The notes below the pieces were generated by a model that searched no databases, was not told the DNA's origin, and saw nothing but the letters and a program-made list of their open reading frames with translations. DNA of 64,000 bases from an uncultured Candidatus Saccharibacteria bacterium (GTDB taxonomy: Bacteria; Patescibacteriota; Minisyncoccia; JAHISW01; Tagabacteraceae), in assembly GCA_964601305.1 (NCBI GenBank), contig CAZRMW010000004.1:434-64433 (forward strand), in the 5' to 3' direction. The translations under genes and the position numbers were made by a program. Every line of letters begins with the position of its first letter. Positions within the stretch are counted from its first letter, which is position 1. Positions 2 through 63,710 of the stretch are shown here, piece after piece.

Positions 2-3000
2 TTTGCAAGAATTGCGTTTGGCGATGAAAGCGATGATGATGTTGGTTTAATTAAATATCAACATACAACAAATGACATGAGGTTCCAGACAAACGGTGCT
101 GAGCAAGTAATAATAGACTCCTCAGGCAACGTGGGGATAGGGACAACGACGCCGGACTTTTTATTGCAAGTAGCTCAAAATGCAAATGCATTAAAATTGT
201 CTAATTATGCTAATACAACGAACCCAATTGAGATGAGAGTTGTTAGACAAAGAACAAGCGGAGCAAACAATGGTTCAACCGACGATATCTTTACATTGTC
301 TGGGTACAAGAGAGCAAGTGGTACTGATGATGAAGTTGCTGCTATTAAATTTATCGGTACTGGTAGTTCAGCTGATGAAGCTAATATTACTTTTTCAACA
401 GCTAATACAGGAGGAGCTTTAACAGAACAAATGAGGATTCAAGATGACGGCAACGTGGGGATTGGGACGAATAGTCCAAACCAGAAGCTACATGTTAACG
501 TAGCTAATGCAGTTTCTGAGAATGTTAATTTCGCGGTGTATGGAAAAATTGCCGGGGCGGCTACATGGGATACAGCCGGTGGATCATTTGCAAATATTGG
601 TACAGGAACCGGAACAAATTATGGAGTTAGTGGAACTGCTTCAGGAGCGGGTACAACTAATATTGGTGGTCATTTTTTGGCTGCAGGAGCGACGAATAAC
701 TATGGTTTAATTGTAAGTTCTGGCAACGTCGGCATTGGTACCACAACACCAGAAACATTATTGAACATACGTGGTACGGATAATACAGAATTTTTGAGAT
801 TAACCGAATCGAATTTTAATTCAGATGCAGGATTAGGTATGGAAGTGCAAGGATCTCAAACAGGGATGAGCTTCTATGTAAATGGAACACAAAAAATGAT
901 GCTAGAAGCTGATGGAGGTGTATCTATAGGAACAAATTACCAAGGTGCGACTAATCCTCCAGCCAACGGTTTGATAGTGGAAGGCAACGTGGGGATAGGG
1001 ACTGTTAGTCCAGAATCAGCACTTACTGTTCAAGACGAAGACGCACAAACAAACGCAGTTCAAAATGTATTAAATATATGGAGGAGTACAACAGGAACTG
1101 CAGCAACAGGATTAGGTGCTGGGATAATGTTCCAACTAGAAGATGACGCAGATTCACTTAGAGGAGCAGGAACAATTGGTTCTAAATGGAAATCTGCAGC
1201 GAATGGTTCCCCTCAAGCTAATTTGTTTTTTGATGACCGTGCTGGAACTACTATTATGACATTAGAACATGGCGGCAACGTGGGGATTGGGACGACGAAC
1301 CCTAATTATAAACTGGAAGTAAATGGTACAGCCTCTACAACTCGTCTATTACTTCCTACAAATAATGACCCAACAACCCCAACAGTGTCTTTTGGGGATG
1401 GCGACACTGGTTTATATGAGGTTGGAGATGACACTATTTCTTGGGCTTTTGGTGGTGCAAGAATATGGACAATAACAAGTAGTAAATTCGCATCGGAAAT
1501 TACAGGTGGTGCTCTATTGGATAGAACTGCATCTAGCGCAACAAACCCAGCACATGCATTTTTTGCCGATGAAGACACTGGAATAGGTAGAGCAGCCGCA
1601 GATACTCTTTCACTTATTACTGCAGCTACGGAAAGAATGCGTATCGACTCCTCTGGCAATGTCGGGATTGGTGTTACAGACCCAGACGAAAAACTAGAAG
1701 TTGCAGGAGCATCTCATTTTGGTAATAGGATAGATATTTATAAGGGCGGAAATGCAACTAAGGTTGCAAATTTAGGTGCTAATGATGATATAGGTTTGTC
1801 TGGTCCAGCGTCAACTGATTTTGTAATTAAAACAACAGAAGCAACGTCAGGCTTTCATGTAAGCACTAGCGGTGATAGTACACCGAATTTTAGTATTATA
1901 GATAGTGGCAACGTCGGCATCGGTACGACGAGTCCAGATGCTGGGTTAGTTGTTAATAAGTCGGGGCTTAATGCTGGTATGATTATAGAAGGCACTTCGG
2001 CGTCGTTGGGTTTTAGGGATACAGAAGCTGGTCACGATGATTTTAGGATTTTAAATGATGCCGATAAATTAAAAATTGGAGTTGATACGGGTGATGTTTT
2101 TTCTAGCGTGTCAAATCTAGTTACAATTCAACAGGACGGCAACGTCGGCATCGGGACTACGGGTCCAGGATATCAATTAGAAGTTAATGTGGATGCAAAC
2201 AGTGAAGGAATAGGTTTAAAGACTGGAGGGACACTACTGGCAGCAATTGAACGTGAAGATACAGACGCAGGAAAACTAGTATTATATGATGGTGCAGCCG
2301 GCAAAATAAAGCTTAATGCTGATGCAGGTGAAGATAGTTGGATTAACAACGGTGGCAATGTCGGCATCGGCACGACGAGTCCGGCATATGTTTTCGAATC
2401 TTATACAAGCGGAAATAATTTTGCTCTAAGTGCAGATTGTGGTGGAGAAGGTGGTTGTGTTTCGATAAAGACCGAAGACGATGCCTCTGGAATTTCTTAT
2501 TATGTGCATGCTAGAGACAAAAATAATCTAGATACAGGATTTCTTTTAGCAGACGGAGGAACTTTTCAGCTGTCCGATGTATCTGACAGAAGATTAAAGA
2601 AAAATATTCGAGAGACTTCTATCAATGGGTTGGAGGTGATAAACAATATAGATGTAAGAGATTTTGAATGGATAGAAAATGATACTACGGTTGTGGGTGG
2701 TTTTATAGCGCAGGAATTACAGTTGGCATTTGCTCCAGCAGCATTTGGCGATCCAGATTCAGACCAAATGATGTCTATCTCCAGAGACAGGTTGGTGCCG
2801 GTTATAATTAAATCTATTCAAGAAATAAGCGACACAATACACATCTCTGAAGAAGGCTATGTAGGACTAGGAAACTTCGATGGACTCACAGCAAGCACAA
2901 CACCACAATACAAGATGCATGTACTAGGCGACGTAGCCGCAGAAAGCTTTGTAAACATCTCCACACAAGAATCTAAGAAAGACATAGAGTACTACACAGA

Positions 3001-3880
3001 AACTAAATACGAAAATGCCCTCACAAAGATAAAAGAAATGAAAGTAGCTAGCTATAACTATGTGAATGATGAATGTGGAATAACGAATGAAGAATGTGAG
3101 CCACAACGACTTGGCCTAATAGCAGAAGAATCCCCAGAAGAAGTACTATCTCTAGACGGCAAAGGAGTAGATCTCTACAAATTATCTTCTTTTATGCTCG
3201 CAGGTCTTAAAGAAACCATAAACAAAGTAGACGAACTAGAAGTGAGAGTAGATAGCCTGGAAGATTTAGTCTCAAACTATGGTAGTTCAACTACGATAGT
3301 TTTGGATGAGCCAGGGCTATTTGGCAGAATGGTAGTATGGCTTACAGACAAAATTCTTTATGTAAAAAGTTTAATTGTAAACGATAAAATTTGCGTAGGG
3401 GAAACTTGTGTAGACGAAAATACACTTAAGGCGCTACTAGAAAATGCAGGGCAAGTGGCTACGACGACACCGAACTCAATTAGCGAAGTTGAACTTCCTT
3501 CGGAAGTGTCAACTTCAACCCCTCAAGACACTACCCCACCAACAATAACCCTACAAGGAAACAACCCAGCTACAGTGAGTATTGGCGCAGAGTACCACGA
3601 CCTAGGAGTAACAATCACAGATAACATGGATAGCAACCTAGGCTACGAAGTATGGAGAAACGGAGAATACCTCGACAGAAACCTTACAGGAGTAAGTGTA
3701 GATACCCAGCCGCAACTTTCGGATGCAGGCGGGCAGGCCAGCACTACAATACATACCATAAGCTACGTAGCGCAAGACCAAGCTGGCAATGTAGCGACAA
3801 GTACGAGAACCATTATAGTATCTGTTGGAGGTCCGACCTCCCTCACAGAAGAAACTGCTACAACAACCCCAACAGAATAA
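2..3880 (+). CDS. Large secreted repeat protein, 5'-partial (open to the window edge). About nine ~100-aa repeats each carry a GNVGIGT(T/S)xP motif. The C-terminus has a peptidase S74 intramolecular-chaperone domain (SDRRLKKNI...GGFIAQEL) and an Ig-like DUF5011-type domain. Phage tail-fibre-like adhesin.
   Basis: ORF 77..3880 of 1267 aa. The frame stays open from nt 2 with no stop and no RBS before the ATG at 77, and Met77 sits in repeat register (MRF/MRI before SSGNVGIG). Matching DNA repeats GGCAACGT(G/C)GG(G/C)AT(A/T/C)GG occur at ~126, 451, 721, 975, 1273, 1656, 1905, 2137 and 2353. The motif SDRRLKKNI plus IAQE matches the endosialidase/tail-fibre chaperone signature. TITLQGNNPATVSIGAEYHDLGVTITD is DUF5011-like. 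Confidence 0.6.
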   Translation, partial: FARIAFGDESDDDVGLIKYQHTTNDMRFQTNGAEQVIIDSSGNVGIGTTTPDFLLQVAQNANALKLSNYANTTNPIEMRVVRQRTSGANNGSTDDIFTLSGYKRASGTDDEVAAIKFIGTGSSADEANITFSTANTGGALTEQMRIQDDGNVGIGTNSPNQKLHVNVANAVSENVNFAVYGKIAGAATWDTAGGSFANIGTGTGTNYGVSGTASGAGTTNIGGHFLAAGATNNYGLIVSSGNVGIGTTTPETLLNIRGTDNTEFLRLTESNFNSDAGLGMEVQGSQTGMSFYVNGTQKMMLEADGGVSIGTNYQGATNPPANGLIVEGNVGIGTVSPESALTVQDEDAQTNAVQNVLNIWRSTTGTAATGLGAGIMFQLEDDADSLRGAGTIGSKWKSAANGSPQANLFFDDRAGTTIMTLEHGGNVGIGTTNPNYKLEVNGTASTTRLLLPTNNDPTTPTVSFGDGDTGLYEVGDDTISWAFGGARIWTITSSKFASEITGGALLDRTASSATNPAHAFFADEDTGIGRAAADTLSLITAATERMRIDSSGNVGIGVTDPDEKLEVAGASHFGNRIDIYKGGNATKVANLGANDDIGLSGPASTDFVIKTTEATSGFHVSTSGDSTPNFSIIDSGNVGIGTTSPDAGLVVNKSGLNAGMIIEGTSASLGFRDTEAGHDDFRILNDADKLKIGVDTGDVFSSVSNLVTIQQDGNVGIGTTGPGYQLEVNVDANSEGIGLKTGGTLLAAIEREDTDAGKLVLYDGAAGKIKLNADAGEDSWINNGGNVGIGTTSPAYVFESYTSGNNFALSADCGGEGGCVSIKTEDDASGISYYVHARDKNNLDTGFLLADGGTFQLSDVSDRRLKKNIRETSINGLEVINNIDVRDFEWIENDTTVVGGFIAQELQLAFAPAAFGDPDSDQMMSISRDRLVPVIIKSIQEISDTIHISEEGYVGLGNFDGLTASTTPQYKMHVLGDVAAESFVNISTQESKKDIEYYTETKYENALTKIKEMKVASYNYVNDECGITNEECEPQRLGLIAEESPEEVLSLDGKGVDLYKLSSFMLAGLKETINKVDELEVRVDSLEDLVSNYGSSTTIVLDEPGLFGRMVVWLTDKILYVKSLIVNDKICVGETCVDENTLKALLENAGQVATTTPNSISEVELPSEVSTSTPQDTTPPTITLQGNNPATVSIGAEYHDLGVTITDNMDSNLGYEVWRNGEYLDRNLTGVSVDTQPQLSDAGGQASTTIHTISYVAQDQAGNVATSTRTIIVSVGGPTSLTEETATTTPTE

Positions 3881-3969
3881 TGTTAGTATTGGTATCCGAA
3901 GGAGATCAGATCTCCTTCAGAAAGGTGCAAAAGGTTGAATAAATTTTGTATTTTTGATAAGGTTATTTT

Positions 3970-4329
3970 ATGGTGAAAAAACAAAAAAAAGAGCCAACAT
4001 CAAGTGATATTTTAGATGCTATTAATAATTTTGCTACTGGTGTAGACAAACGTTTTGATGGTGTAGACAAACGTTTTGATAAAATCGAAGAGAGATTAGA
4101 CAATATAGAGGAGGATATTGTTGAAATGAAAGAAGACATTAGACAAATAAAACTTGAAATAAAAAGTGTTTGGGGTAAACTCGAGGAAATAGAAAAGAGA
4201 TTAGAAAGACTAGAAAAAACAACAAAAGAAGACACAGATACGCTTTCTATAGACGTTTTGAATTTAAGAAAAAAAGTAGAATTTTTAGAAGGCGAAATAA
4301 AGGAACTTCAATTAGTTAATGCAAAATAA
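3970..4329 (+). CDS. Small coiled-coil protein of unknown function, with an exact 21-nt tandem duplication (GVDKRFD x2).
   Basis: 119-aa charged heptad-rich ORF. The DNA segment ggtgtagacaaacgttttgat occurs twice in tandem at 4039-4080. Confidence 0.4.
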   Translation: MVKKQKKEPTSSDILDAINNFATGVDKRFDGVDKRFDKIEERLDNIEEDIVEMKEDIRQIKLEIKSVWGKLEEIEKRLERLEKTTKEDTDTLSIDVLNLRKKVEFLEGEIKELQLVNAK

Positions 4330-4332
4330 AAT

Positions 4333-5022
4333 ATGTCTGAATCAAAAAATAATTTAAAGATAAAAGCTGAAAAAAGAGATATCTTTGGTAAAAAGCTAAG
4401 AGAATCAAGAAAAGAAGGCAAGTTGCCTGCTGTTTTTTACCCGTCCAAAGGCCGGGCAGGCGGTTCTAAAAAAGAAAGCACCTCTATTTTTATAGATCAA
4501 AGCGAATTTGGCAGAGCTTGGAAGAAAGCCGGAGAGTCTACAGTATTAGATTTAGAAGTAGACAATAAAGTTATTCCAGTTTTAATTTACAAAGTAGATT
4601 TAAACCCTCTTACAAGTGAACCAATTCATGTAGATTTTTACGCAGTGGATATGACTAAAAAAGTTTCTACTACAGTGCCGTTTTCTTTTGTGGGAGAAGC
4701 TCCTGCAGTAAAGCTTGGAGGCACACTAGTTGAAGTGATGAGGGAAATAGAAGTAGAAGCTATGCCAGCAGATTTACCTCACGAGATAGAGGTAGATGTT
4801 TCTGTTTTAGAAAACTTTGAAAGTAAAATAACAATTGGAGATCTAAAAATACCAGAAGGTGTAAGTGTTTCCGCAGAAAAAGAAGATGTAATAGCTTTTG
4901 TAGAAGAAGCCAAGGAAGAAGAGGAAGAAGTGCTAGAAGAAGCTGTAAGTGTTGCTGATATTGAGGTAGAGAAGAAAGGAAAACAAGAAGATGAATCAGA
5001 AGGAGAAACTCCTTCTGAATAG
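4333..5022 (+). CDS. rplY: Ribosomal protein bL25 (general stress protein Ctc family) with an acidic C-terminal tail.
   Basis: The N-terminal KRDIFGKKLRESRKEGKLPAVFY motif is typical of L25/Ctc. 229 aa with an E-rich tail. Confidence 0.75.
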   Translation: MSESKNNLKIKAEKRDIFGKKLRESRKEGKLPAVFYPSKGRAGGSKKESTSIFIDQSEFGRAWKKAGESTVLDLEVDNKVIPVLIYKVDLNPLTSEPIHVDFYAVDMTKKVSTTVPFSFVGEAPAVKLGGTLVEVMREIEVEAMPADLPHEIEVDVSVLENFESKITIGDLKIPEGVSVSAEKEDVIAFVEEAKEEEEEVLEEAVSVADIEVEKKGKQEDESEGETPSE

Positions 5023-5054
5023 TAACTAGTAACAAGTAACGGGTAACTAGTAAA
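5021..5054. repeat. Heptamer array, about five copies of AGTAAC(N). Left arm of a ~30-bp imperfect inverted repeat that encloses the four-helix-bundle gene.
   Basis: The sequence agtaactagtaacaagtaacgggtaactagtaaa lies directly between the rplY stop and the 5055 ATG. It is the reverse complement of the array at 5433-5467. Confidence 0.8.
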
Positions 5055-5426
5055 ATGGAAAATAGTATAAAAAATTTCTATGATTTAGAGGCCTGGAAAA
5101 AAGGACATGCTTTGGTTTTGAGTATCTATAAAATTACAGAAAGTTTTCCTAAAGAGGAAACATACGGTATAATTAGTCAACTAAGGAGAGCTTCTAGTTC
5201 TATTACTGCAAATATTGCTGAGGGGTTTGCTCGTTATCATTTTAGAGACAAAATTAGGTTTTATCACAATGCACGCGGCTCAGTTGCGGAGGTTCAAAAT
5301 TTTTTACTTTTAGCAAAGGATCTAAAATTTATTGGTTTAGATATATGTAAAAATTTAGGGAGAGAAGCAGTAGGTGTAAGTAAATTAATAAATGGCTTAA
5401 TAAAATCAATTGAGAAACAAATATAA
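5055..5426 (+). CDS. Four-helix-bundle protein (TIGR02436-type; the family typically encoded in 23S rRNA intervening sequences).
   Basis: 123 aa with YDLEAWKKGHAL...ITESFPKEE..YGIISQLRRASSSITANIAEGFAR...ARGSVAEVQ, a signature of this family. Confidence 0.75.
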   Translation: MENSIKNFYDLEAWKKGHALVLSIYKITESFPKEETYGIISQLRRASSSITANIAEGFARYHFRDKIRFYHNARGSVAEVQNFLLLAKDLKFIGLDICKNLGREAVGVSKLINGLIKSIEKQI

Positions 5427-6810
5427 AAAAAATTACTTGTTACTTGTTACTTGTTACTTGTTACTTGTCGTAGGCGGTGGTTTTGTTTTTGCTGAAGAAA
5501 TTAATGTGGAAAAAGCTCGCGCAGAGCTAGAAGCTGAATTGGCAGAGCTTGAAAAGCAGATGGAAGGATATAATGAAATAATAAAAGGAAAGCAAAGAGA
5601 GGCCACTTCTTTTGAAAGAGACATATCTATATTAGACGCTAAAATAAACAAAGCAAAAGCTGCTATACGATCCAGAAATCTTTCTATAGGCAAGTTAAAC
5701 TCTGGCATAGAAGACAAGAAAATATTTATAGGAGATTTAGATAAAAAAATAGAAGCTGAAAAAATTTCTTTAGCAGAGCTGATAAGAAGAGTAAATGAAA
5801 TGGACACTACAAGTGTAGTAGAAATTCTTTTGGGGTATGATTCTCTCTCGGAATTTTTTGAAGACTTCAGTTCTTTTGAGTCTATACAAAAAGAATTGCA
5901 AGTTTCTTTAGCGGAAATCAGAGGAACCCAAGAGTTAACAGAGAAGGAAAAAGAACAGCTCGAAGAAAAAAAACTAGGAGAGGTTGAATTAAAATCTATT
6001 CAAGAACTTGAAAAGAGAGGGCTTGAAGTAAAAGAAAACGAAAAACAAACACTACTTAAAATTACAAAAGGCGAGGAAGAAAAATACCAGAAAATTTTGG
6101 AAGAAAAAGAGAAATCTGCAGCTGAAATAAGAACAAGAATTTTCCGCTTGTTTGGTGGGGGAGAGTTAAGTTTTGCAGAGGCTGTAAAAATAGCCAAGAT
6201 TGCTGAAAAGGCTAGTGGTATCAGATCTGCTTTCATTTTGGCAGTGTTGGCACAAGAATCGGCACTAGATGGAGTTATTGGTAGAAATTTGGGGCAATGT
6301 TTTTATAATACACACGCAAGCAATTCTAGTGGCACTGTAATGAGTAAAAGCCAAAAGCCTTCGTTTTTGGCAATTATGAAAGAAATTGGTATGGATCCAA
6401 ACAACACTCCGGTTTCTTGCCCAATAGTTTCCGATGGGGCTCATGGTGGAGCGATGGGGCCCGCTCAGTTTATGCCAAGAACATGGTGGGATATAAATTC
6501 TAAAACTGGATACAAAAAAAGAATAGCTCAAATTACTGGCAACAATCCCCCTTCGCCATTTAATAATTCTGACGCTTTTGTGGGAACCTCGCTCTATTTA
6601 AAAGATGCTTACAATTCGAGTGCCTGCAAAAAATATGGCACAGAAAATAAACACATTTCTCCAGAACAATTGCTTAGAGAAAGGTGTGCGGCTGCGAGAT
6701 ACTATGCAGGTGGCGCTTGGTATAAATTTAGATGGGCTTATGGCGAGCCTGTTGTGGAGAGAGCTGCAGAGTTTCAGAAAGATATAAATTTAATAACCAA
6801 TACTCAATAA
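5410..6810 (+). CDS. Secreted coiled-coil protein with a C-terminal MltB-like (SLT_2) lytic murein transglycosylase domain.
   Basis: It has a signal peptide and ~230 aa of E/K-rich coiled coil. The C-terminus carries LAQESAL (catalytic Glu context), GGAMGPAQFMPRTW and NNSDAFVGTSLYLKDA, matching MltB-family motifs. Confidence 0.6.
   Translation: MRNKYKKNYLLLVTCYLLLVVGGGFVFAEEINVEKARAELEAELAELEKQMEGYNEIIKGKQREATSFERDISILDAKINKAKAAIRSRNLSIGKLNSGIEDKKIFIGDLDKKIEAEKISLAELIRRVNEMDTTSVVEILLGYDSLSEFFEDFSSFESIQKELQVSLAEIRGTQELTEKEKEQLEEKKLGEVELKSIQELEKRGLEVKENEKQTLLKITKGEEEKYQKILEEKEKSAAEIRTRIFRLFGGGELSFAEAVKIAKIAEKASGIRSAFILAVLAQESALDGVIGRNLGQCFYNTHASNSSGTVMSKSQKPSFLAIMKEIGMDPNNTPVSCPIVSDGAHGGAMGPAQFMPRTWWDINSKTGYKKRIAQITGNNPPSPFNNSDAFVGTSLYLKDAYNSSACKKYGTENKHISPEQLLRERCAAARYYAGGAWYKFRWAYGEPVVERAAEFQKDINLITNTQ
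5433..5467. repeat. Heptamer array (TTACTTG)x5, the reverse complement of the 5021-5054 array. Right arm of the inverted repeat around the four-helix-bundle gene. It also encodes part of the signal peptide of the next gene.
   Basis: The sequence is ttacttgttacttgttacttgttacttgttacttgt. Translated in the frame of ORF 5410 it gives LLLVTCYLLLV. Confidence 0.8.
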
Positions 6811-6830: not shown

Positions 6831-7604
6831 CTACTTTTTCTTCTTTTCCTTAGACTTTTCTATATACTTTATTATTTTATCTAAATTTCCGTCTAAAATC
6901 TTGTCTATGTTATGCCAAGATTTTTTAAAGCGATGATCGGTAATTCTATCTTGCATAAAATTATAGGTTCGTATTTTCTCGGATCTATCTTGTGTGCCAA
7001 CTTGGTCTCTTCTAAGTTCGCTTACAGAGGCTACTTTTTCTTCTTGCATAGCTTGCATTAGTCTTGCGGTAAGTATTCTCATGGCTTCTTCCCTGTTTCT
7101 TTGTTGGTTTCTTTCCCCTTCGCACCTTACGACAAGCCCAGTTGGTTTGTGAGTAAGTCTTACAGCTGTTTCTACTTTGTTTACATTTTGCCCTCCTTTC
7201 CCCCCAGAGTGAGTAAAGCTCATTTCTATGTCTTCCGGTTTTATTTCCATTTTTTGCTCTGGAAATATTGGAAGTAAAGAAACAGAAGCTGTAGATGTGT
7301 GTATTCGCCCAGATTTTTCTGTTGATGGTATTCTTTGTACACGATGAACCCCAGATTCGTGCGCTAGTTTTTTTGGAGCTTCTGCGTTTTTTATTTTAAA
7401 AGCAACTTCTTTTATTCCCCCCAAGTCATCTTTGGATTTACTTATAAGGTTCATTTTCCAATTTTTAGATTCTGCGTACTTTGTGTACATTCTATATAAA
7501 TCATCAGCAAAAAGCGCAGCTTCTTTTCCTCCTGCGCCAGCACGAATTTCAACTATTACACCAGTTGGTGTGTCTGCATTGTTTTGTTGTATGTTATAGT
7601 CCAC
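6831..7604 (-). CDS. prfA: Peptide chain release factor 1, short form (257 aa) lacking the N-terminal domain 1.
   Basis: [18 protein letters not shown] is the RF1-type PxT tripeptide region. The GGQ motif is [24 protein letters not shown]. The PST-to-GGQ spacing matches RF1, and only a 124-nt intergenic region lies upstream. The gene sits next to rpmE, as in the canonical prfA context. Confidence 0.75.
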
Positions 7605-15320: not shown

Positions 15321-15428
15321 ACAAAACCAAAACTAATTTTTTACTTTCCCTAAATTATGATAATTTAGGGAAGTGTTCGTTTTAGACTCACAAGCACGTA
15401 AAAAATTGTTTTGATTTTGTGTTTTGTA
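15321..15428. repeat. ~100-nt noncoding repeat, copy 1 of 2 (the other is at 51596-51706). It contains the CCCTAAATTAT-GA-TAATTTAGGG hairpin.
   Basis: acaaaaccaaaac...ttttttactttccctaaattatgataatttagggaagtg.tcg.tttag.ctcacaagcacgtaaaaaattgttttg.ttttgtgtttt is nearly identical to the second copy. Confidence 0.8.
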
Positions 15429-34482: not shown

Positions 34483-34505
34483 TAAATTTGGTTATAAAAA
34501 CAAAC

Positions 34506-34530
34506 ACCGCCTGCAAATGCAGGCGGTGTA
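34506..34530. terminator. Bidirectional intrinsic terminator (CACCGCCTGC-AAAT-GCAGGCGGTG) shared by the DUF336 gene and the convergent rnpB.
   Basis: A perfect 10-bp GC stem with T-runs on both sides. Confidence 0.65.
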
Positions 34531-39686: not shown

Positions 39687-39764
39687 TTTTCTTTTCCTTG
39701 TCTTTTTAGTTGTGAAAGTCTCTGTTTTTTGCTCTAATATTAAGAAAGCATATAGAATGTAAAG

Positions 39765-42071
39765 ATGCAAGAGAACAAAAAAACAACTGAAAATATACGC
39801 AATTTTTGTATTATTGCACACATAGACCATGGTAAATCTACCTTGGCTGATAGGCTATTGGAATTAACAAATACAGTTGAAGAAAGGAAAATGAAAAATC
39901 AAGTTTTAGACCAAATGGAACTTGAGAGGGAAAGAGGTATAACTATAAAAATGCAGCCTGTTAAAATGATTTACCTGATAAACCATTTTAACCGCGGACT
40001 TACGCAGAAAAAGACGCAGAAAAACGCGGAAAAGCTTTTGTATAGCGATCTTACTTATAAGATTCGTGGGATATTATTTAATGTTAGAAAAAAAATTGGG
40101 TTAGGCCACAAAGAACAAGTTTATCATAATGCGTTAGAAATAGAATTTAAAAATGCAGGGTTGAGATTTGAGAGCAAAAAGAATATTCCAATTTTATACA
40201 ATAACAAAAAAATAGGCATGTACCAGCCTGATTTTTTGGTAGAGGATAAGGTTATGATTGAATTAAAAGCCCTGCCAGAAATAGGAAGAACGCAGAGAGA
40301 GCAGATTTGGTCTTATCTAAAAGGGTGTGAATATAAACTTGCTTTGTTGGTTAATTTTGGTTCTAGGGATTTGGAAATTAAAAGAATTGTTTACGATACA
40401 GCTCGGGAGTTTTCTGCGTCTTCTGCGTTAAGTCTGCGGGATTCAGCGGGAGTGGAAGATAAGATTGAGAATTATATTCTCAATCTTATCGACACTCCAG
40501 GGCATATAGATTTTTCTTACGAAGTTTCCAGGTCTTTAAAGGCTGTCGAGGGAGCAGTGCTTTTGGTTGATGCCACACAAGGAGTGCAAGCACAAACTAT
40601 TTCTAATCTAGAAATAGCAAGATCTCTCGATTTAGTAATTGTACCAGTGATAAACAAGATAGATAGTCCACTAGCAAGAACAGACGAGGTAAAGAAAGAA
40701 ATTGTGGAGATACTTAATTGTAAAGAAGAAGATGTTTTGGAGGTGTCAGCAAAAACTAGCGAGGGGGTAGAAAAACTTCTTGAAGAAGTCATCTCTCGTG
40801 TTCCTTCTCCGCGTCGAAGCCAGGCTTTGACGCAAAATTTGAAAGCTCTAGTTTTCGATTTTGAATACTCTTCGCATAAAGGGATAATACTTTATGTTAG
40901 GATTATGGGTGGATCTATAAAAAAGGGAGACAAAGTTTTTCTTTTTCAAACCGGCAAAGATTTTATTGCTAGCGAAGTGGGTATTTTTACCCCATCTCCA
41001 AAAAGTAAAAATAGTTTAGAAAATGGAGAAATAGGATATATAATAACTAGTCTGAAAGAAACAAACATTGCTTCTGTTGGTGATACTTTGTTTTCTTTTT
41101 CTGAAAAAAATAATCCAGATTTATTACCACTGAAGGGGTACAAAACACCCTCGCCAGTAGTTTGGGCTAGTATTTATCCAGAATCTCAAGATGATTTTAT
41201 GAGCCTGAGACAATCACTAGAAAGGCTTAGTTTGGCAGATAGCTCTTTAAGTTTTGAAGAGGAAGAAAGCGGTATTTTGGGGCGTGGATTTAGGTGTGGT
41301 TTTTTGGGAATGCTACACCTTGAGATTGTTGCAGAGCGTCTTAAAAGAGAGTTTAATCTTGATTTGATTGTAGCTACTCCAAGCGTCGTTTATAAAATTG
41401 AAGATCAAAATGGCAATGAGAAAGAAATATATTCAGCAGCACTTTTTCCAGAAAGTCATCAAATAAAAAAAATTTTTGAGCCGTGGGTAGACATAAAAAT
41501 AATGACTCCTTTTGAAAAAATGAATGACGTAATGCAGGTACTTAAAAGACACAAGGCAATAATTGGTGATACTGAAGATTTTGGTAGTGACAGAATAGTA
41601 ATAAAAAATCAAATGCCACTTAGAGAGATGATGAACAATTTCTTTGAGGATTTAAAGAGTGCTACATCGGGCTATGCATCACTTAGCTACGAAATTATAG
41701 ACGAAAGACCCGGAGACCTTGTTTGTTTAAAAGTTTTGTTAAACGATGAGGTTATTCCTGCTTTTTCAAAAATTGTAGAAAGGGGAGATATACAAAGAGA
41801 GGCGAAAAATTTAGCTGAAAAACTGAAGAAATTTTTACCTAAAGCTCTGTTTGTTATAAAAATTCAGGTAAAAGCCTTGGGAAGAATTTTGGCAGCTCAA
41901 AGAATTTCGGCTTTAAAAAAGGATGTGACAGGGCATTTGTACGGGGGAGATATAAGCAGAAAACAAAAACTTTGGAAAAAACAAAAAAAGGGTAAAGAAA
42001 AATTAAAAAAACACGGGAAGGTAAATATTCCTCACAGTGTTTTTATAAATATGATAAAAAATAGGGATTAG
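39765..42071 (+). CDS. lepA: Elongation factor 4 (LepA) carrying a ~165-aa in-frame insertion between the G2 and G3 motifs.
   Basis: FCIIAHIDHGKSTLADRLL, GITIKMQ, [insert], LIDTPGHIDFSYEVSRSL, VVPVINKID, plus the LepA C-terminal domain. The total is 768 aa against ~600 typical. Confidence 0.85.
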   Translation: MQENKKTTENIRNFCIIAHIDHGKSTLADRLLELTNTVEERKMKNQVLDQMELERERGITIKMQPVKMIYLINHFNRGLTQKKTQKNAEKLLYSDLTYKIRGILFNVRKKIGLGHKEQVYHNALEIEFKNAGLRFESKKNIPILYNNKKIGMYQPDFLVEDKVMIELKALPEIGRTQREQIWSYLKGCEYKLALLVNFGSRDLEIKRIVYDTAREFSASSALSLRDSAGVEDKIENYILNLIDTPGHIDFSYEVSRSLKAVEGAVLLVDATQGVQAQTISNLEIARSLDLVIVPVINKIDSPLARTDEVKKEIVEILNCKEEDVLEVSAKTSEGVEKLLEEVISRVPSPRRSQALTQNLKALVFDFEYSSHKGIILYVRIMGGSIKKGDKVFLFQTGKDFIASEVGIFTPSPKSKNSLENGEIGYIITSLKETNIASVGDTLFSFSEKNNPDLLPLKGYKTPSPVVWASIYPESQDDFMSLRQSLERLSLADSSLSFEEEESGILGRGFRCGFLGMLHLEIVAERLKREFNLDLIVATPSVVYKIEDQNGNEKEIYSAALFPESHQIKKIFEPWVDIKIMTPFEKMNDVMQVLKRHKAIIGDTEDFGSDRIVIKNQMPLREMMNNFFEDLKSATSGYASLSYEIIDERPGDLVCLKVLLNDEVIPAFSKIVERGDIQREAKNLAEKLKKFLPKALFVIKIQVKALGRILAAQRISALKKDVTGHLYGGDISRKQKLWKKQKKGKEKLKKHGKVNIPHSVFINMIKNRD
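39978..40478 (+). mobile_element. IVS-type insertion within lepA. It encodes a GxxExxY-family (TIGR04256-like, PD-(D/E)xK-like) domain and is bounded by ~30-bp imperfect inverted repeats.
   Basis: The GHKEQVY motif and NALEIEF are present. The left arm aaccgcggacttacgcagaaaaagacgcagaaaaacgcgg at 39990-40029 is the reverse complement, with ~85% identity, of the right arm gagttttctgcgtcttctgcgttaagtctgcggg at 40407-40440. Confidence 0.65.
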
Positions 42072-49370: not shown

Positions 49371-51194
49371 ATGACTAAAACAAACAAAAACAAAAAACTA
49401 TCTTTTGATGCTGTAAAAAATATATTCATAAACGCTGGGCGTTTATGGAAAATTTTATGGCGAAAAAATAAAGGAATTATAGCTATTTCGTTTTTTACTA
49501 TCTTGCTGATTTCCACAACCCCATTCTTAAGTAGCGGTGTTTGGGGGCTTTTGATTAATGAACTTGTAAAAATGATTGGCGCAAAGGAAATATCTGACTA
49601 CTTTATTTTAATACTAGGAGCGTTTGTTTTTATAGCACTATTTAGTTCCTTAATAATCTCAGTAAGGAAATATCTAGATATGGTTTTTTGGTTTATTTTG
49701 GAAGAGAAGTTTGAATTTCTCATTTTAAAAAAGAGAGGAGGTCTTGATGTTGCTATACATGAGGATCCCAAGAAAAATGATTTATTAAATAAAATAAGCG
49801 AAAATGGTACTTGGAGAATAAAAAATTTTGTTGATAGACAATTTTATATTTTACAAGACATCATTAAGGTTGTGATTGCTTCTGTAGTTATAATTATATT
49901 TAATTGGTGGGTGTTTTTAGTTATTTTAATTGGTACATTTCCTGAATTTTTTGTAGAAGCCAAATATGGAAGAAGAGTTTGGGATATACACACTAGTGGT
50001 GCTGAAACAAGAAGAAAATATTGGAATCTGAGAAATCATTTTTTTGATATTTCTAGGGTGGTAGAATTAAAGCTTTTTCAGAATATAAAGTATTTTCTAG
50101 GTGAGGTAAAAAAACTTTTTGTTGTTTTTTTAAAAAAACAGAAGAAAAGCGAAAAAGAAAAATTTGCTTTTTCTTCAGTGGCGGCTGTTTTATCAGAAAT
50201 AGTAATTGTTTTTTCACTTATTTATTTTGTATTTCAGGTTATTTATGGAGACTTACAAATCGGTACATTAACTTTTATAAGTGCATCTATTGCTAGTCTA
50301 AGGAGTGCTTTTTCTGGTTTGTTTATGTCGCTTGGCAGACAATACCAAGACAGTTTATTTGTTAGTGATGTGTTTGAATTTTTAGATATTGAAAAAGCTG
50401 TAGAAGAGCCGGAAAAATCCATTAAACTTAAAAAAGGGAAAACTCCAGAAATAAATTTTGAAAATGTTTCTTTTGCTTACCCTGGTACAGATAGAGTAGT
50501 TTTAAAAAACCTAAATTTAAAGATAGAACCTGGCGAAAAAGTGGCAATAATTGGAGTAAATGGAGCAGGGAAGACGACTTTAATAAAATTGCTGTGCAGG
50601 TTTTACGATACTACAAAGGGGAATATTTCTATTGGCGGGCATAGCATTAAAGAAATAGATTTAAAAAGTTGGTATAAAAAAATTGGGGCAATTTTTCAAG
50701 ATTATGCCAATTATCATTTTTTAGTAAAAGATTCTATTGCAATTGGTAGAACTGGTAAAAAGACAGATCTACAAAAAGTAAAAGATGCAGCCAAAGCCAG
50801 CGAGGCAGATATTTTTATTGAGGAGTGGGAAAAGAAATACAAGCAAATGCTTGGTAAGCAATTTACTGGTGGGTTGGAGCCTTCTGTAGGCCAGTGGCAG
50901 AAATTAGCTCTTGCTAGAACTTTTTATAGAGATCCGCGCGTACTTATTTTAGATGAGCCAACATCTTCAATAGACGCGGAAGCAGAAGCAAAAATTTTTG
51001 AAAGGTTAGAAAAACTTCCAAAAGACAGAACAGTGATTTTGATTTCTCATAGATTTTCTACCGTGCGCCATGCAGACAAAATTGCAGTAATAGAAAAAGG
51101 AACTATAAAAGAATATGGCACACATGAAGAATTAATGAAACTAAACAAAACTTACGCCAAACTCTTCAAACTCCAAGCAAAAGGATACAAGTAA
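49371..51194 (+). CDS. ABC transporter, fused permease/ATP-binding exporter.
   Basis: Six N-terminal TM helices, Walker A GVNGAGKTT, signature-like GGLEPSVGQWQKLALAR, Walker B ILDEPTSSID. Confidence 0.7.
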   Translation: MTKTNKNKKLSFDAVKNIFINAGRLWKILWRKNKGIIAISFFTILLISTTPFLSSGVWGLLINELVKMIGAKEISDYFILILGAFVFIALFSSLIISVRKYLDMVFWFILEEKFEFLILKKRGGLDVAIHEDPKKNDLLNKISENGTWRIKNFVDRQFYILQDIIKVVIASVVIIIFNWWVFLVILIGTFPEFFVEAKYGRRVWDIHTSGAETRRKYWNLRNHFFDISRVVELKLFQNIKYFLGEVKKLFVVFLKKQKKSEKEKFAFSSVAAVLSEIVIVFSLIYFVFQVIYGDLQIGTLTFISASIASLRSAFSGLFMSLGRQYQDSLFVSDVFEFLDIEKAVEEPEKSIKLKKGKTPEINFENVSFAYPGTDRVVLKNLNLKIEPGEKVAIIGVNGAGKTTLIKLLCRFYDTTKGNISIGGHSIKEIDLKSWYKKIGAIFQDYANYHFLVKDSIAIGRTGKKTDLQKVKDAAKASEADIFIEEWEKKYKQMLGKQFTGGLEPSVGQWQKLALARTFYRDPRVLILDEPTSSIDAEAEAKIFERLEKLPKDRTVILISHRFSTVRHADKIAVIEKGTIKEYGTHEELMKLNKTYAKLFKLQAKGYK

Positions 51195-51195
51195 A

Positions 51196-51227
51196 AATAG
51201 TGAAGTCGAACTTCACTATTTTTACTT
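51196..51227 (+). terminator. Intrinsic terminator hairpin AATAGTGAAGT-CGA-ACTTCACTATT.
   Basis: A perfect 11-bp stem immediately after the ABC transporter stop. Confidence 0.55.
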
Positions 51228-58888: not shown

Positions 58889-58973
58889 ACTTTAAAACCT
58901 AATGATTGAAGTTGGACTTCAATCATAAACCAGTCAAACCACCTAAATCTAGGGCTAGATTTAGGTGGTTCCA

Positions 58974-60684: not shown

Positions 60685-60807
60685 ATGCCCCAAAACAGTT
60701 AATTCCATCAAATCTAGGGCCGTTTTGATAGAATTAGACCTTTTTTGCGGGATTTTACCCATATTTTCTGGAATATTTACATCGACATCCGATGTCGATG
60801 TAGACTA

Positions 60808-63403: not shown

Positions 63404-63710
63404 CTTTTTATTTTTATAGAATACAATTATTTGTACTAATAGATTATGTCTATTAGTTGTTTTTTGAGAACTGAATTAAGAGAAACACAATTTGTGCAAC
63501 AAATATTTTTTAACACATCATAATATCTTTTATTTTGTTCCGTTCTGATCTTACTCACGAATGAAGTGAGTGATTTGTAAGATCTGAACCCCGAGATAAA
63601 TTCTTAGAATTTATTTTTCGGGGTTCGTATTATTGCCACGAAAAATGAAATTATTTAAATAATTTCATCTCGTGGCTCTAATAAATACAATCACGATCCT
63701 CGTGAGTATT
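63404..63710 (+). promoter_or_regulatory. rRNA operon promoter and 16S leader. It contains several long hairpins that are likely processing stems.
   Basis: TTGACT-like box at ~63404. Hairpins GATCTTACTCAC...GTGAGTGATTTGTAAGATC, CCCCGAGATAAATTCT-TAG-AATTTATTTTTCGGGG and CCACGAAAAATGAAATTATT-TAA-ATAATTTCATCTCGTGG. Confidence 0.5.

Follow-up and report, generated by a model that had tools for sequence, protein, structure and literature searches.

What is a nuclease-like domain doing inside LepA, and how did it get there? LepA (EF4) is among the most conserved bacterial proteins, and the question is raised by its gene on a contig of an uncultured Candidatus Saccharibacteria bacterium (GenBank assembly GCA_964601305.1, contig CAZRMW010000004.1, positions 434 to 64,433 of the forward strand). 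This stretch of 64,000 nucleotides, with a G+C content of 35%, is the whole of the DNA that was analysed and is called the window here. An initial annotation, made from the letters alone, had described an in-frame insert of about 500 nt between the G2 and G3 motifs of lepA, and had taken it for an element of the intervening sequence (IVS) type that is known from 23S rRNA genes. We consider it probable that the insert is rather a homing-type selfish DNA element, one that is translated through and not spliced; that it is mobile and read through is well supported, while its enzymology is something that we infer.

An in-frame insertion in the G domain of LepA

The host gene, the inserted element and the domain that it encodes are placed as follows.

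39765..42071, + strand: lepA (EF4) open reading frame (ORF) including the insert, 768 aa, matching TIGR01393 above its cut-off
39975..40472, + strand: inserted element, 498 nt or 166 codons (aa 71-236), in frame with both halves of the host and free of stops
40047..40388, + strand: GxxExxY / PDDEXK_3 nuclease domain, aa 95-208, assigned from hidden Markov model (HMM) matches, AlphaFold2, Foldseek and the ratio of nonsynonymous to synonymous change (dN/dS)

The in-frame insertion in lepA is real, being confirmed both by a split match to the model of the host protein and by relatives in which the site is empty, and at 498 nt it agrees with the size first proposed. The NCBIfam equivalog model for lepA, TIGR01393, recognises the window protein with 726 bits (cut-off 534) in two stretches: the match breaks cleanly after model position ~66 and is taken up again by aa 234-765, which correspond to model positions 67-593, with ~160 residues intercalated at the break. 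The motifs AHIDHGKS (G1), GITIK (G2), DTPGH (G3) and NKID (G4) are all intact. We set the boundaries of the insert by this break together with the empty-site relatives, in which the region reads GITIKMQPVRM-x-Y-(0-6 residues)-Y-x-LNLIDTPGH; the window protein reads ...PVKMIY / LINHFNRG...SAGVEDKIEN / YILNLIDTPGH, the slashes marking the two junctions. The insert takes the place of the β2-β3 hairpin turn in the G2-G3 interval, between the native residues Y70 and Y237, and the predicted peptides spanning the junctions of the chimera are MIYLINHFNR and DSAGVEDKIENYILNLIDTPGH. Judging from the general architecture of translational GTPases, to which LepA is homologous, this turn should be solvent-exposed.

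The insert encodes a complete domain of the GxxExxY/PDDEXK_3 family. By HMM search, PF13366 (PDDEXK_3) matches aa 95-208 over profile positions 2-117 of 117 (E 5e-32, 111-114 bits, cut-off 22), and TIGR04256 (GxxExxY) matches over positions 1-116 of 116 (E 1e-33, 116-119 bits, cut-off 35), so that full-length matches above curated cut-offs bear out the GxxExxY / PD-(D/E)xK identity of the initial annotation. The GHKEQVY motif occupies aa 114-120, and the putative catalytic residues E117, D156, E166 and K168 are invariant, or nearly so, in lepA-borne and free-standing homologues alike. An AlphaFold2 model of the insert, built from an 80-sequence alignment, has a predicted local distance difference test score (pLDDT) of 88.6, reaching 95-99 in the domain and 57-70 in the ends encoded by the repeat arrays described below; since the score is that low at the ends, we read them as flexible linkers. 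Foldseek against PDB returned the PD-(D/E)xK nucleases Cas4 SSO0001, lambda exonuclease, LHK-Exo and RecE at modest TM-scores of ~0.45, along with marginal matches to archaeal tRNA-splicing endonucleases (E 0.02-0.1), and a profile search of PDB sequences gave only non-significant matches, the best of them to the PD...ExK region of T7 endonuclease I (E 0.14). Conservation, AlphaFold2 and Foldseek agree on a PD-(D/E)xK fold with the active-site residues E...PD...ExK.

Among the lepA-borne copies the core of the domain has a median dN/dS of 0.15, with saturated synonymous sites (synonymous divergence, pS, of 0.83), and since this ratio is low and the catalytic residues are invariant, the domain is under purifying selection with its active site intact. 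The GxxExxY family is listed as being of unknown function (PMC3424549), and a known phage or defence family was sought for the insert domain in PHROGs and PADLOC, neither of which gave a match. The insert lacks a start codon and its ORF is continuous with lepA, which is why the nuclease would be made solely as part of LepA.

Occupied sites, empty sites and probable spread between lineages

An insert-only profile search of the GTDB species genomes returned 80 loci, 44 of which, all in Patescibacteria, carry the domain in LepA and at the same site; the frame is open from GITIK to DTPGH in 43 of the 43 other lepA loci with a complete region. Further in-frame hosts among the 80 loci, confirmed by Pfam, are LeuRS (4), RecG (3), GatB (2), asparagine synthase and SecA, and the N-terminus of MurB also carries the domain, this last host being known from flanking sequence alone, without confirmation by Pfam. 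In phyla outside the candidate phyla radiation (CPR), GxxExxY stands alone as a gene of ~130 aa. When 1.8 billion representative proteins were searched with a profile, 15,549 family members came up, and ~58 of the best 150 are long proteins in which the domain is embedded, their hosts including glycosyltransferases, RecG, elongation factor (EF)-type GTPases, GatB, transketolase and Wzy.

Empty sites are found close by. Among the 120 best LepA relatives the domain is present in none except the window LepA, and the nearest relatives (P0122-P0131; 66-71% identity, 594-613 aa) have an empty site. In one of these nearest relatives, L084, the order of genes is that of the window, with MurJ, a minus-strand ORF, lepA and a DivIC-like gene. 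The relatives of the window LepA are annotated as Patescibacteria, Pacebacteria, Tagabacteria and Terrybacteria, which places the organism in the CPR. The site can be read in 74 metagenomic relatives, where it is empty 59 times, holds a short insert without an ORF 15 times, and never holds the full element.

ORF-less inserts of 7-70 residues are found at the same lepA site in many other Patescibacteria, and at the DNA level two of them (L083, L086) share the layout of two junction hairpins around a pair of inverted arrays (H1/H2/H3) that is described in the next section, with differing H2 motifs. Many of the ORF-less inserts, in loci L083, L086 and L093-L166, begin with the signature of H1, W/Y-H-P-Q. 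The β2-β3 turn of LepA is a hotspot for palindromic insertions, which occupy it in ~20% (15/74) of the sampled Patescibacteria lepA. Additional short in-frame inserts made of array peptides alone, for example TDADYTQNYAEENFLHGSASSQRSSATS, and devoid of the nuclease ORF, are present in the LeuRS of L024 and the GatB of L068, and both these and the ORF-less inserts look like non-autonomous derivatives.

Two further observations concern the carriers. The LeuRS genes of L026 (positions 2230-5973) and L031 hold a second in-frame insert, with a serine-hydrolase / alpha-beta-hydrolase domain (aa 659-822 in L026), which suggests that core enzymes of these lineages often take up large inserted domains. 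In L001 (3556-3653) and L002 (1641-1651), runs of N follow directly after the insert and lepA is annotated as two partial genes. It seems that short-read assemblies and gene calls break at the palindromic junctions, and scaffold gaps and contig ends beside the insert explain why a protein search brought up N-terminal fragments only.

The divergence of the insert is largely independent of that of its host. Over the 34 complete lepA loci, the insert core has a mean identity of 65% (0.654) and the LepA host one of 51%; the insert is the more similar of the two in 526 of 561 pairs, and the distances of insert and host correlate with a Spearman rho of 0.15. The window insert is 81-83% identical to the inserts of L006, L007 and L050, whose LepA are 46-51% identical to its own host. 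Since the similarity of the inserts both exceeds and is uncoupled from that of the hosts, and since the closest relatives have empty sites, we read these numbers as pointing to horizontal spread into the same lepA site, that is, to homing. What characterises a homing endonuclease gene, namely a nuclease ORF, a conserved site, relatives with the site empty and a distribution incongruent with that of the host, is found here. The proposal that a selfish element has colonised a coding gene is likewise upheld by the empty sites nearby, by the use of one site in 43 distant species, by the uncoupled divergence and by the other hosts.

One could also speculate that the insert has been domesticated, and is a functional LepA domain inherited vertically in some Patescibacteria, with repeats and hairpins as relics of its arrival. 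Strong purifying selection on an intact active site, a base composition like that of the host, and a saturated synonymous divergence that implies long residence would all fit, and orthologues do carry the segment, as the initial annotation had noted would be the case for a native domain. They carry it patchily, however, and together with its repeats, while the closest LepA relatives lack it; insert and host diverge independently; and the same domain with its arrays sits in LeuRS, RecG, GatB, asparagine synthase, SecA and glycosyltransferases. Relic palindromes, moreover, would decay at saturated synonymous sites, whereas the arms of the junction hairpins are still ~98% paired. We therefore regard domestication as unlikely.

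Inverted arrays and junction hairpins

The ends of the element, and the host sequence next to them, have the following structure.

39960..39992, + strand: H1, left junction hairpin, with exon arm GTTAAAATGATTTA (V-K-M-I codons), element arm TAAACCATTTTAAC and loop CCTGA
39992..40034, + strand: left repeat array (left arm of H2), four copies of (A)CGC(A/G)GA at 39993, 40002, 40014 and 40024, spaced by ~10-12 nt and translated as RGLTQKKTQKNAEK
40410..40449, + strand: right repeat array (right arm of H2), TCTGCGT at 40413 and 40422, TCTGCGG at 40433 and TCAGCGG at 40443, all reverse-complementary to the left motif; encoded peptide FSASSALSLRDSAG
40449..40498, + strand: H3, right junction hairpin, with element arm GATAAGATTGAGAAT (40458-40472) and exon arm ATTCTCAATCTTATC (40476-40490, I-L-N-L-I)

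Read from 5' to 3', the element consists of TAAACCATTTTAAC, the four left motifs, the nuclease domain, four TC(T/A)GCG(T/G) motifs and GATAAGATTGAGAAT. Its arrays are the terminal inverted repeats described in the initial annotation, and their reported complementarity of ~85% is reproduced: 39992-40023 and 40410-40440 form 28 Watson-Crick pairs and one G.T pair, with four gap columns and a perfect core of 13 nt. The long stem expected at the RNA level is also predicted, the fold of 39950-40500 having an energy of -159.8 kcal/mol (z = -6.56, with 0 of 100 shuffles as stable) and comprising H1, H3 and, as the closing stem, H2. Across loci, pairing in H2 is confined to the motifs and leaves the spacers unpaired (1241 Watson-Crick pairs, 139 other mismatches, 115 gap columns), and G.T pairs (24) are rarer than A.C mismatches (51). 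H2 is less a helix than a pair of inverted arrays of a 7-nt motif, and its pairing statistics speak against a stem selected as RNA. Since no helix of the element shows an enrichment of G.U over A.C, we dropped RNA structure as the main explanation.

Free-standing GxxExxY genes of Flavobacteria, Pontiellaceae and another Patescibacterium are also bracketed by arrays, of CACAGA, ACACGGA and ACGGA, and periodic short motifs of this kind suggest that the inverted arrays may be protein-binding sites. The motif of the lepA element, ACGCAGAA / TTCTGCGT, is free of stops in all six reading frames, and hosts read it in different frames, as TQK/TQN, NAE and RR on one side and as SA, LR and FC on the other; freedom from stops would ease the survival of the element in frame. 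A pair of TTCTGCGT at 7380/7470, considered as a further trace of the element in the window, proved to be a chance match inside a release-factor gene.

H1 and H3 did not figure in the initial annotation. In both, the end of the element is the reverse complement of the exon that adjoins it, for which we know of no precedent. H1 pairs 39960-39973 with 39979-39992 in the window (14 nt, 93% paired) and is found in the predicted fold as well, while H3 is paired over 15 nt at 100%, with the native Y237 codon TAT as its loop and an outer extension, GGAGTG/CACTCC. The window holds 7 perfect hairpins of at least 12 bp, where shuffles give 0.07, and of these H3 alone falls within a coding region. The six others, of 12-18 bp (15346-15372, 34504-34529, 51189-51227, 58937-58970, 60778-60802 and 63645-63668), are apparently intergenic and probably represent terminators or processing sites; an ABC-transporter gene has one of them at its stop codon, the RNase P RNA gene has one next to it, and a third directly precedes the 16S rRNA.

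Among the 43 other lepA loci, H1 is seen in ~31 and H3 in ~36-39, with arms of 8-24 nt. Watson-Crick pairs account for 414 of 424 positions in H1 (10 non-Watson-Crick) and for 529 of 545 in H3 (16 non-Watson-Crick), which together amount to ~98%, with 6 G.T against 8 A.C. The exon arms vary, mostly synonymously, and at the variable positions cognate arms pair at 97.5-98%, whereas arms taken from other loci pair at 37-66%. In an RNAalifold analysis of 37 sequences, two of the pairs had 13 and 9 double-sided changes and zero one-sided ones. The covariation can even be seen in the protein, where VKM is followed by HF, and VRM by HP, HS or HA, because AAA/TTT, CGG/CCG, AGA/TCT and CGC/GCG are reverse complements. 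Exon-complementary ends also occur in leuS, recG and gatB hosts: in leuS they measure 12-18 bp on the left and 13 bp on the right in L034, and read AAAAGTGTTGG/CCAACACTTTT versus AAGAGTGTTGG/CCAACACTCTT in L024 and L026; in recG (L043) they measure 11 bp and in gatB (L068) 16 bp.

Something keeps the arms complementary, because at saturated synonymous sites palindromes that are not maintained would have decayed. Since wobble pairs are nearly missing, the pattern points to a process at the level of DNA, which may be templated copying from arm to arm or selection for a DNA hairpin, and not to a compensatory RNA helix. A simple P-nucleotide scheme, in which the arms copy the immediately adjacent bases, was considered and set aside, as zero-length loops occur in only 5-6 loci per hairpin; the usual loop consists of the native x-Y or Y codons and is not palindromic. 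The junctions show no direct target-site duplication, as would be expected of a classical transposon with terminal inverted repeats; instead, each flank is duplicated in inverted orientation. Exon-derived arms can travel or be duplicated with the element, because whole junction modules are found twice in two cases: in L087 (960-1700, on the contig of P0025) an exon-like arm, its complement and the left array are followed by a repetition of all three, and protein P0008 has the mirror-image duplication on the right, with a second ILNLID segment. L087 also has a TGA at an invariant Trp codon of the nuclease domain, and its lepA frame is disrupted further downstream.

These data bear on the mechanism initially put forward, in which RNase III would cut the array stem in the lepA transcript and so regulate or fragment the mRNA, much as in the IVSs of 23S rRNA. 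The element does have terminal inverted repeats that could pair as a long stem, and the predicted stem, stable against shuffles, closes the ORF. The window also holds a sister cassette:

5021-5465: 23S_rRNA_IVP cassette, with an ORF at 5055-5426 encoding a four-helix-bundle protein of 123 aa (full-length match, E 3e-34)

The assignment of this protein to the IVS family in the initial annotation is therefore correct. Its cassette is free-standing and intergenic, beside an L25/Ctc-like gene and not in rRNA, and is flanked by GTAAC-type inverted arrays (5021-5053 / 5433-5465, 33 nt, 88%), and in this it shares its cassette logic with the lepA insert. Against an IVS mechanism, cleavage without ligation would destroy the mRNA of lepA, and elsewhere that of leuS, gatB and secA, whereas all 43 lepA frames are open; the arms pair at motifs and not at spacers, with fewer G.T than A.C; and the element lies in rRNA at none of the loci examined, the only rRNA of the window being the start of a 16S gene at 63709. 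Nor did we find support for the premise that GxxExxY proteins are typical of 23S rRNA IVSs: 0 of 20 free-standing GxxExxY loci are in rRNA genes, and a survey of rRNA insertions in the CPR lists LAGLIDADG, GIY-YIG and 23S_rRNA_IVP proteins and leaves PDDEXK unmentioned (PMC11270868). Given the pairing statistics and the frame kept downstream, the specific RNase III mechanism is not supported, at least as far as sequence comparison can tell, and we hold it to be quite improbable.

A new RNA intron of the IRE1/HAC1 type, in which both hairpin loops are cut, perhaps by the encoded domain, and the exons are rejoined by an RNA ligase, would suit the H1/H2/H3 topology, with exon ends paired to intron ends and junctions in or next to the loops, and would give meaning to the marginal Foldseek matches to archaeal tRNA-splicing endonucleases. 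Splicing would, however, make a frame that continues downstream needless, and yet this frame is kept in 43 of 43 loci; of the 959 pairs in the hairpins only 6 are G.T, which do not outnumber A.C, unlike what is seen in compensated RNA helices; and some loci have no hairpins at all. We judge such an intron very unlikely. An intein, a group I or II intron or an assembly artefact, to which the in-frame position in a conserved motif region (as for inteins) and N gaps beside the insert in two public scaffolds might have pointed, can be practically dismissed, since there is no Hint domain (Pfam) and, as already stated in the initial annotation, no intein splicing residue, with no C, S or T at either junction (the insert starts with L, or H or K in orthologues, and ends ...EN before Y, with no junction nucleophile in any orthologue), no ribozyme matches (no Rfam family at gathering score in the window, and none at E <= 1 in 39700-40700), and more than 40 genomes as well as many metagenomes, each assembled on its own, show the same structure.

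A proposed homing-type element without splicing

The reading that we favour can be laid out as follows. A nuclease gene without a start codon, bracketed by inverted ACGCAGA arrays, would have been inserted in frame into a loop of the LepA G domain and would be kept in both RNA and protein, with ribosomes reading through it. The product would be LepA with a folded nuclease domain tethered by two flexible linkers, the translated arrays. This chimera would be tolerated because the insertion sits in a loop, and selection would hold the frame open. Between lineages the element would spread into the same site, helped by the near-invariant G2 and G3 coding sequence on both sides, and occasionally to loops of other conserved genes. 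Its mobility may be driven by the nuclease, which would either cut empty alleles, so that recombination copies the element into them, or have hairpin or cruciform DNA as its substrate; the repeat arrays may serve as protein-binding sites, and the junction hairpins may be made or kept by templated copying, as part of insertion or maintenance.

Several points weigh against this account. The transfers are not recent, because synonymous sites are saturated and the core has a host-like composition (31% GC, versus 35% in the host), and the higher conservation of the insert could in principle come from strong constraint rather than from transfer. Nuclease activity, cleavage of an empty lepA site and transposition are predictions from comparison, and removal of the insert at the RNA level, in place of read-through, keeps a small probability. 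The metagenome scan gave no near-identical empty allele, its best relative being 71% identical, and tblastn and blastn found no second copy of the element in the window. The junction hairpins have no established role, and they were not found in the lepA loci L039, L041, L045 and L047, which are divergent, nor in the asparagine synthase and SecA hosts. Finally, the full-length AlphaFold2 model of LepA with its insert is poor in the LepA part (pLDDT 58.8); we took no geometry from it, and for this reason the placing of the insertion point at the surface is argued from homology to other translational GTPases.

Several known systems resemble the element in part. Rickettsia palindromic elements (RPEs) are palindromic, lie in frame in unrelated housekeeping genes, are translated, and are predicted to be compatible with fold and function (PMC10969869). 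Like them, the lepA element is selfish palindromic DNA in frame, and the ORF-less inserts found in lepA at this site appear to be direct counterparts of RPEs; RPEs are, however, ~150 bp long, multicopy in a genome and without an enzyme of their own, whereas the lepA element has a complete nuclease domain, one site across many species and exon-complementary ends. Measured against RPEs or miniature inverted-repeat transposable elements, it shares insertion in frame and the potential to form hairpins, and differs in that the copy in the window is single and has a nuclease ORF, and is thus neither multicopy nor non-autonomous. The IVSs of 23S rRNA occur sporadically, apparently through horizontal transfer (PMC11270868), and share with the lepA element this sporadic occurrence and a small ORF enclosed by terminal inverted repeats that could pair into a long stem. 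They reside in rRNA helices and are excised by RNase III without ligation, while the lepA element resides in a coding gene whose frame it keeps, its protein belongs to another family, and nothing in it indicates selection for RNA pairing.

Inteins with homing endonucleases are likewise inserted in frame by conserved motifs, are patchy, are missing from the site in relatives and include a nuclease domain; the lepA element differs from them in having neither a Hint domain nor nucleophiles, in presumably staying in the mature protein, and in its PD-(D/E)xK rather than LAGLIDADG or HNH nuclease. IS200/IS605 and REP/RAYT elements have DNA hairpins at their ends and pair with their flanks, and T7 endonuclease I is a structure-specific PD-(D/E)xK enzyme. 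The lepA element resembles these systems in its end hairpins and flank pairing, a mechanistic link being conjecture, and differs in the lack of an HUH/Y1 transposase, and in hairpins that include 10-24 nt of host coding sequence and vary from one site to the next. It thus joins features of RPEs, of IVS cassettes and of the homing endonucleases of inteins and introns, without a splicing step. The literature that we searched, on GxxExxY, PDDEXK_3 and in-frame, palindromic or homing elements of Patescibacteria, does not describe this arrangement; the search was not exhaustive, and there is a substantial chance that the mechanism is new.

More tentatively, GxxExxY cassettes, 23S_rRNA_IVP cassettes and ORF-less in-frame palindromes might together form one unrecognised class of mobile elements, moved by a nuclease that acts on DNA hairpins or cruciforms, with their flanks copied in reverse complement onto their ends either at insertion or during later maintenance by templating between the arms, and following in Patescibacteria, besides RNA splicing and protein splicing, a third lifestyle within essential genes, in frame within surface loops. 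We regard this wider idea as possible though doubtful; if true, such a class would supply the missing mechanism of mobility for IVS-like and RPE-like palindromic insertions, as well as a way for conserved proteins to gain entire domains.

On the practical side, inserts of this kind break assemblies, with N gaps adjoining them, and yield split or partial gene calls. As to the biology, selfish elements in essential genes splice out as RNA, as introns do, or as protein, as inteins do, or else are short and in frame, as RPEs are; here a complete nuclease gene with its arrays appears to survive simply because it remains in frame within a LepA loop, and in other species likewise in LeuRS, RecG, GatB, SecA and further hosts. 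If confirmed, this would be a new lifestyle for homing-type elements, and it would show how the reduced genomes of the CPR gain large domain insertions in their core proteins. It would also give the GxxExxY family, whose function is unknown, a testable role, and would make the exon-complementary hairpins, with their Watson-Crick-only pairing, a substrate for working out how IVS-like cassettes move.

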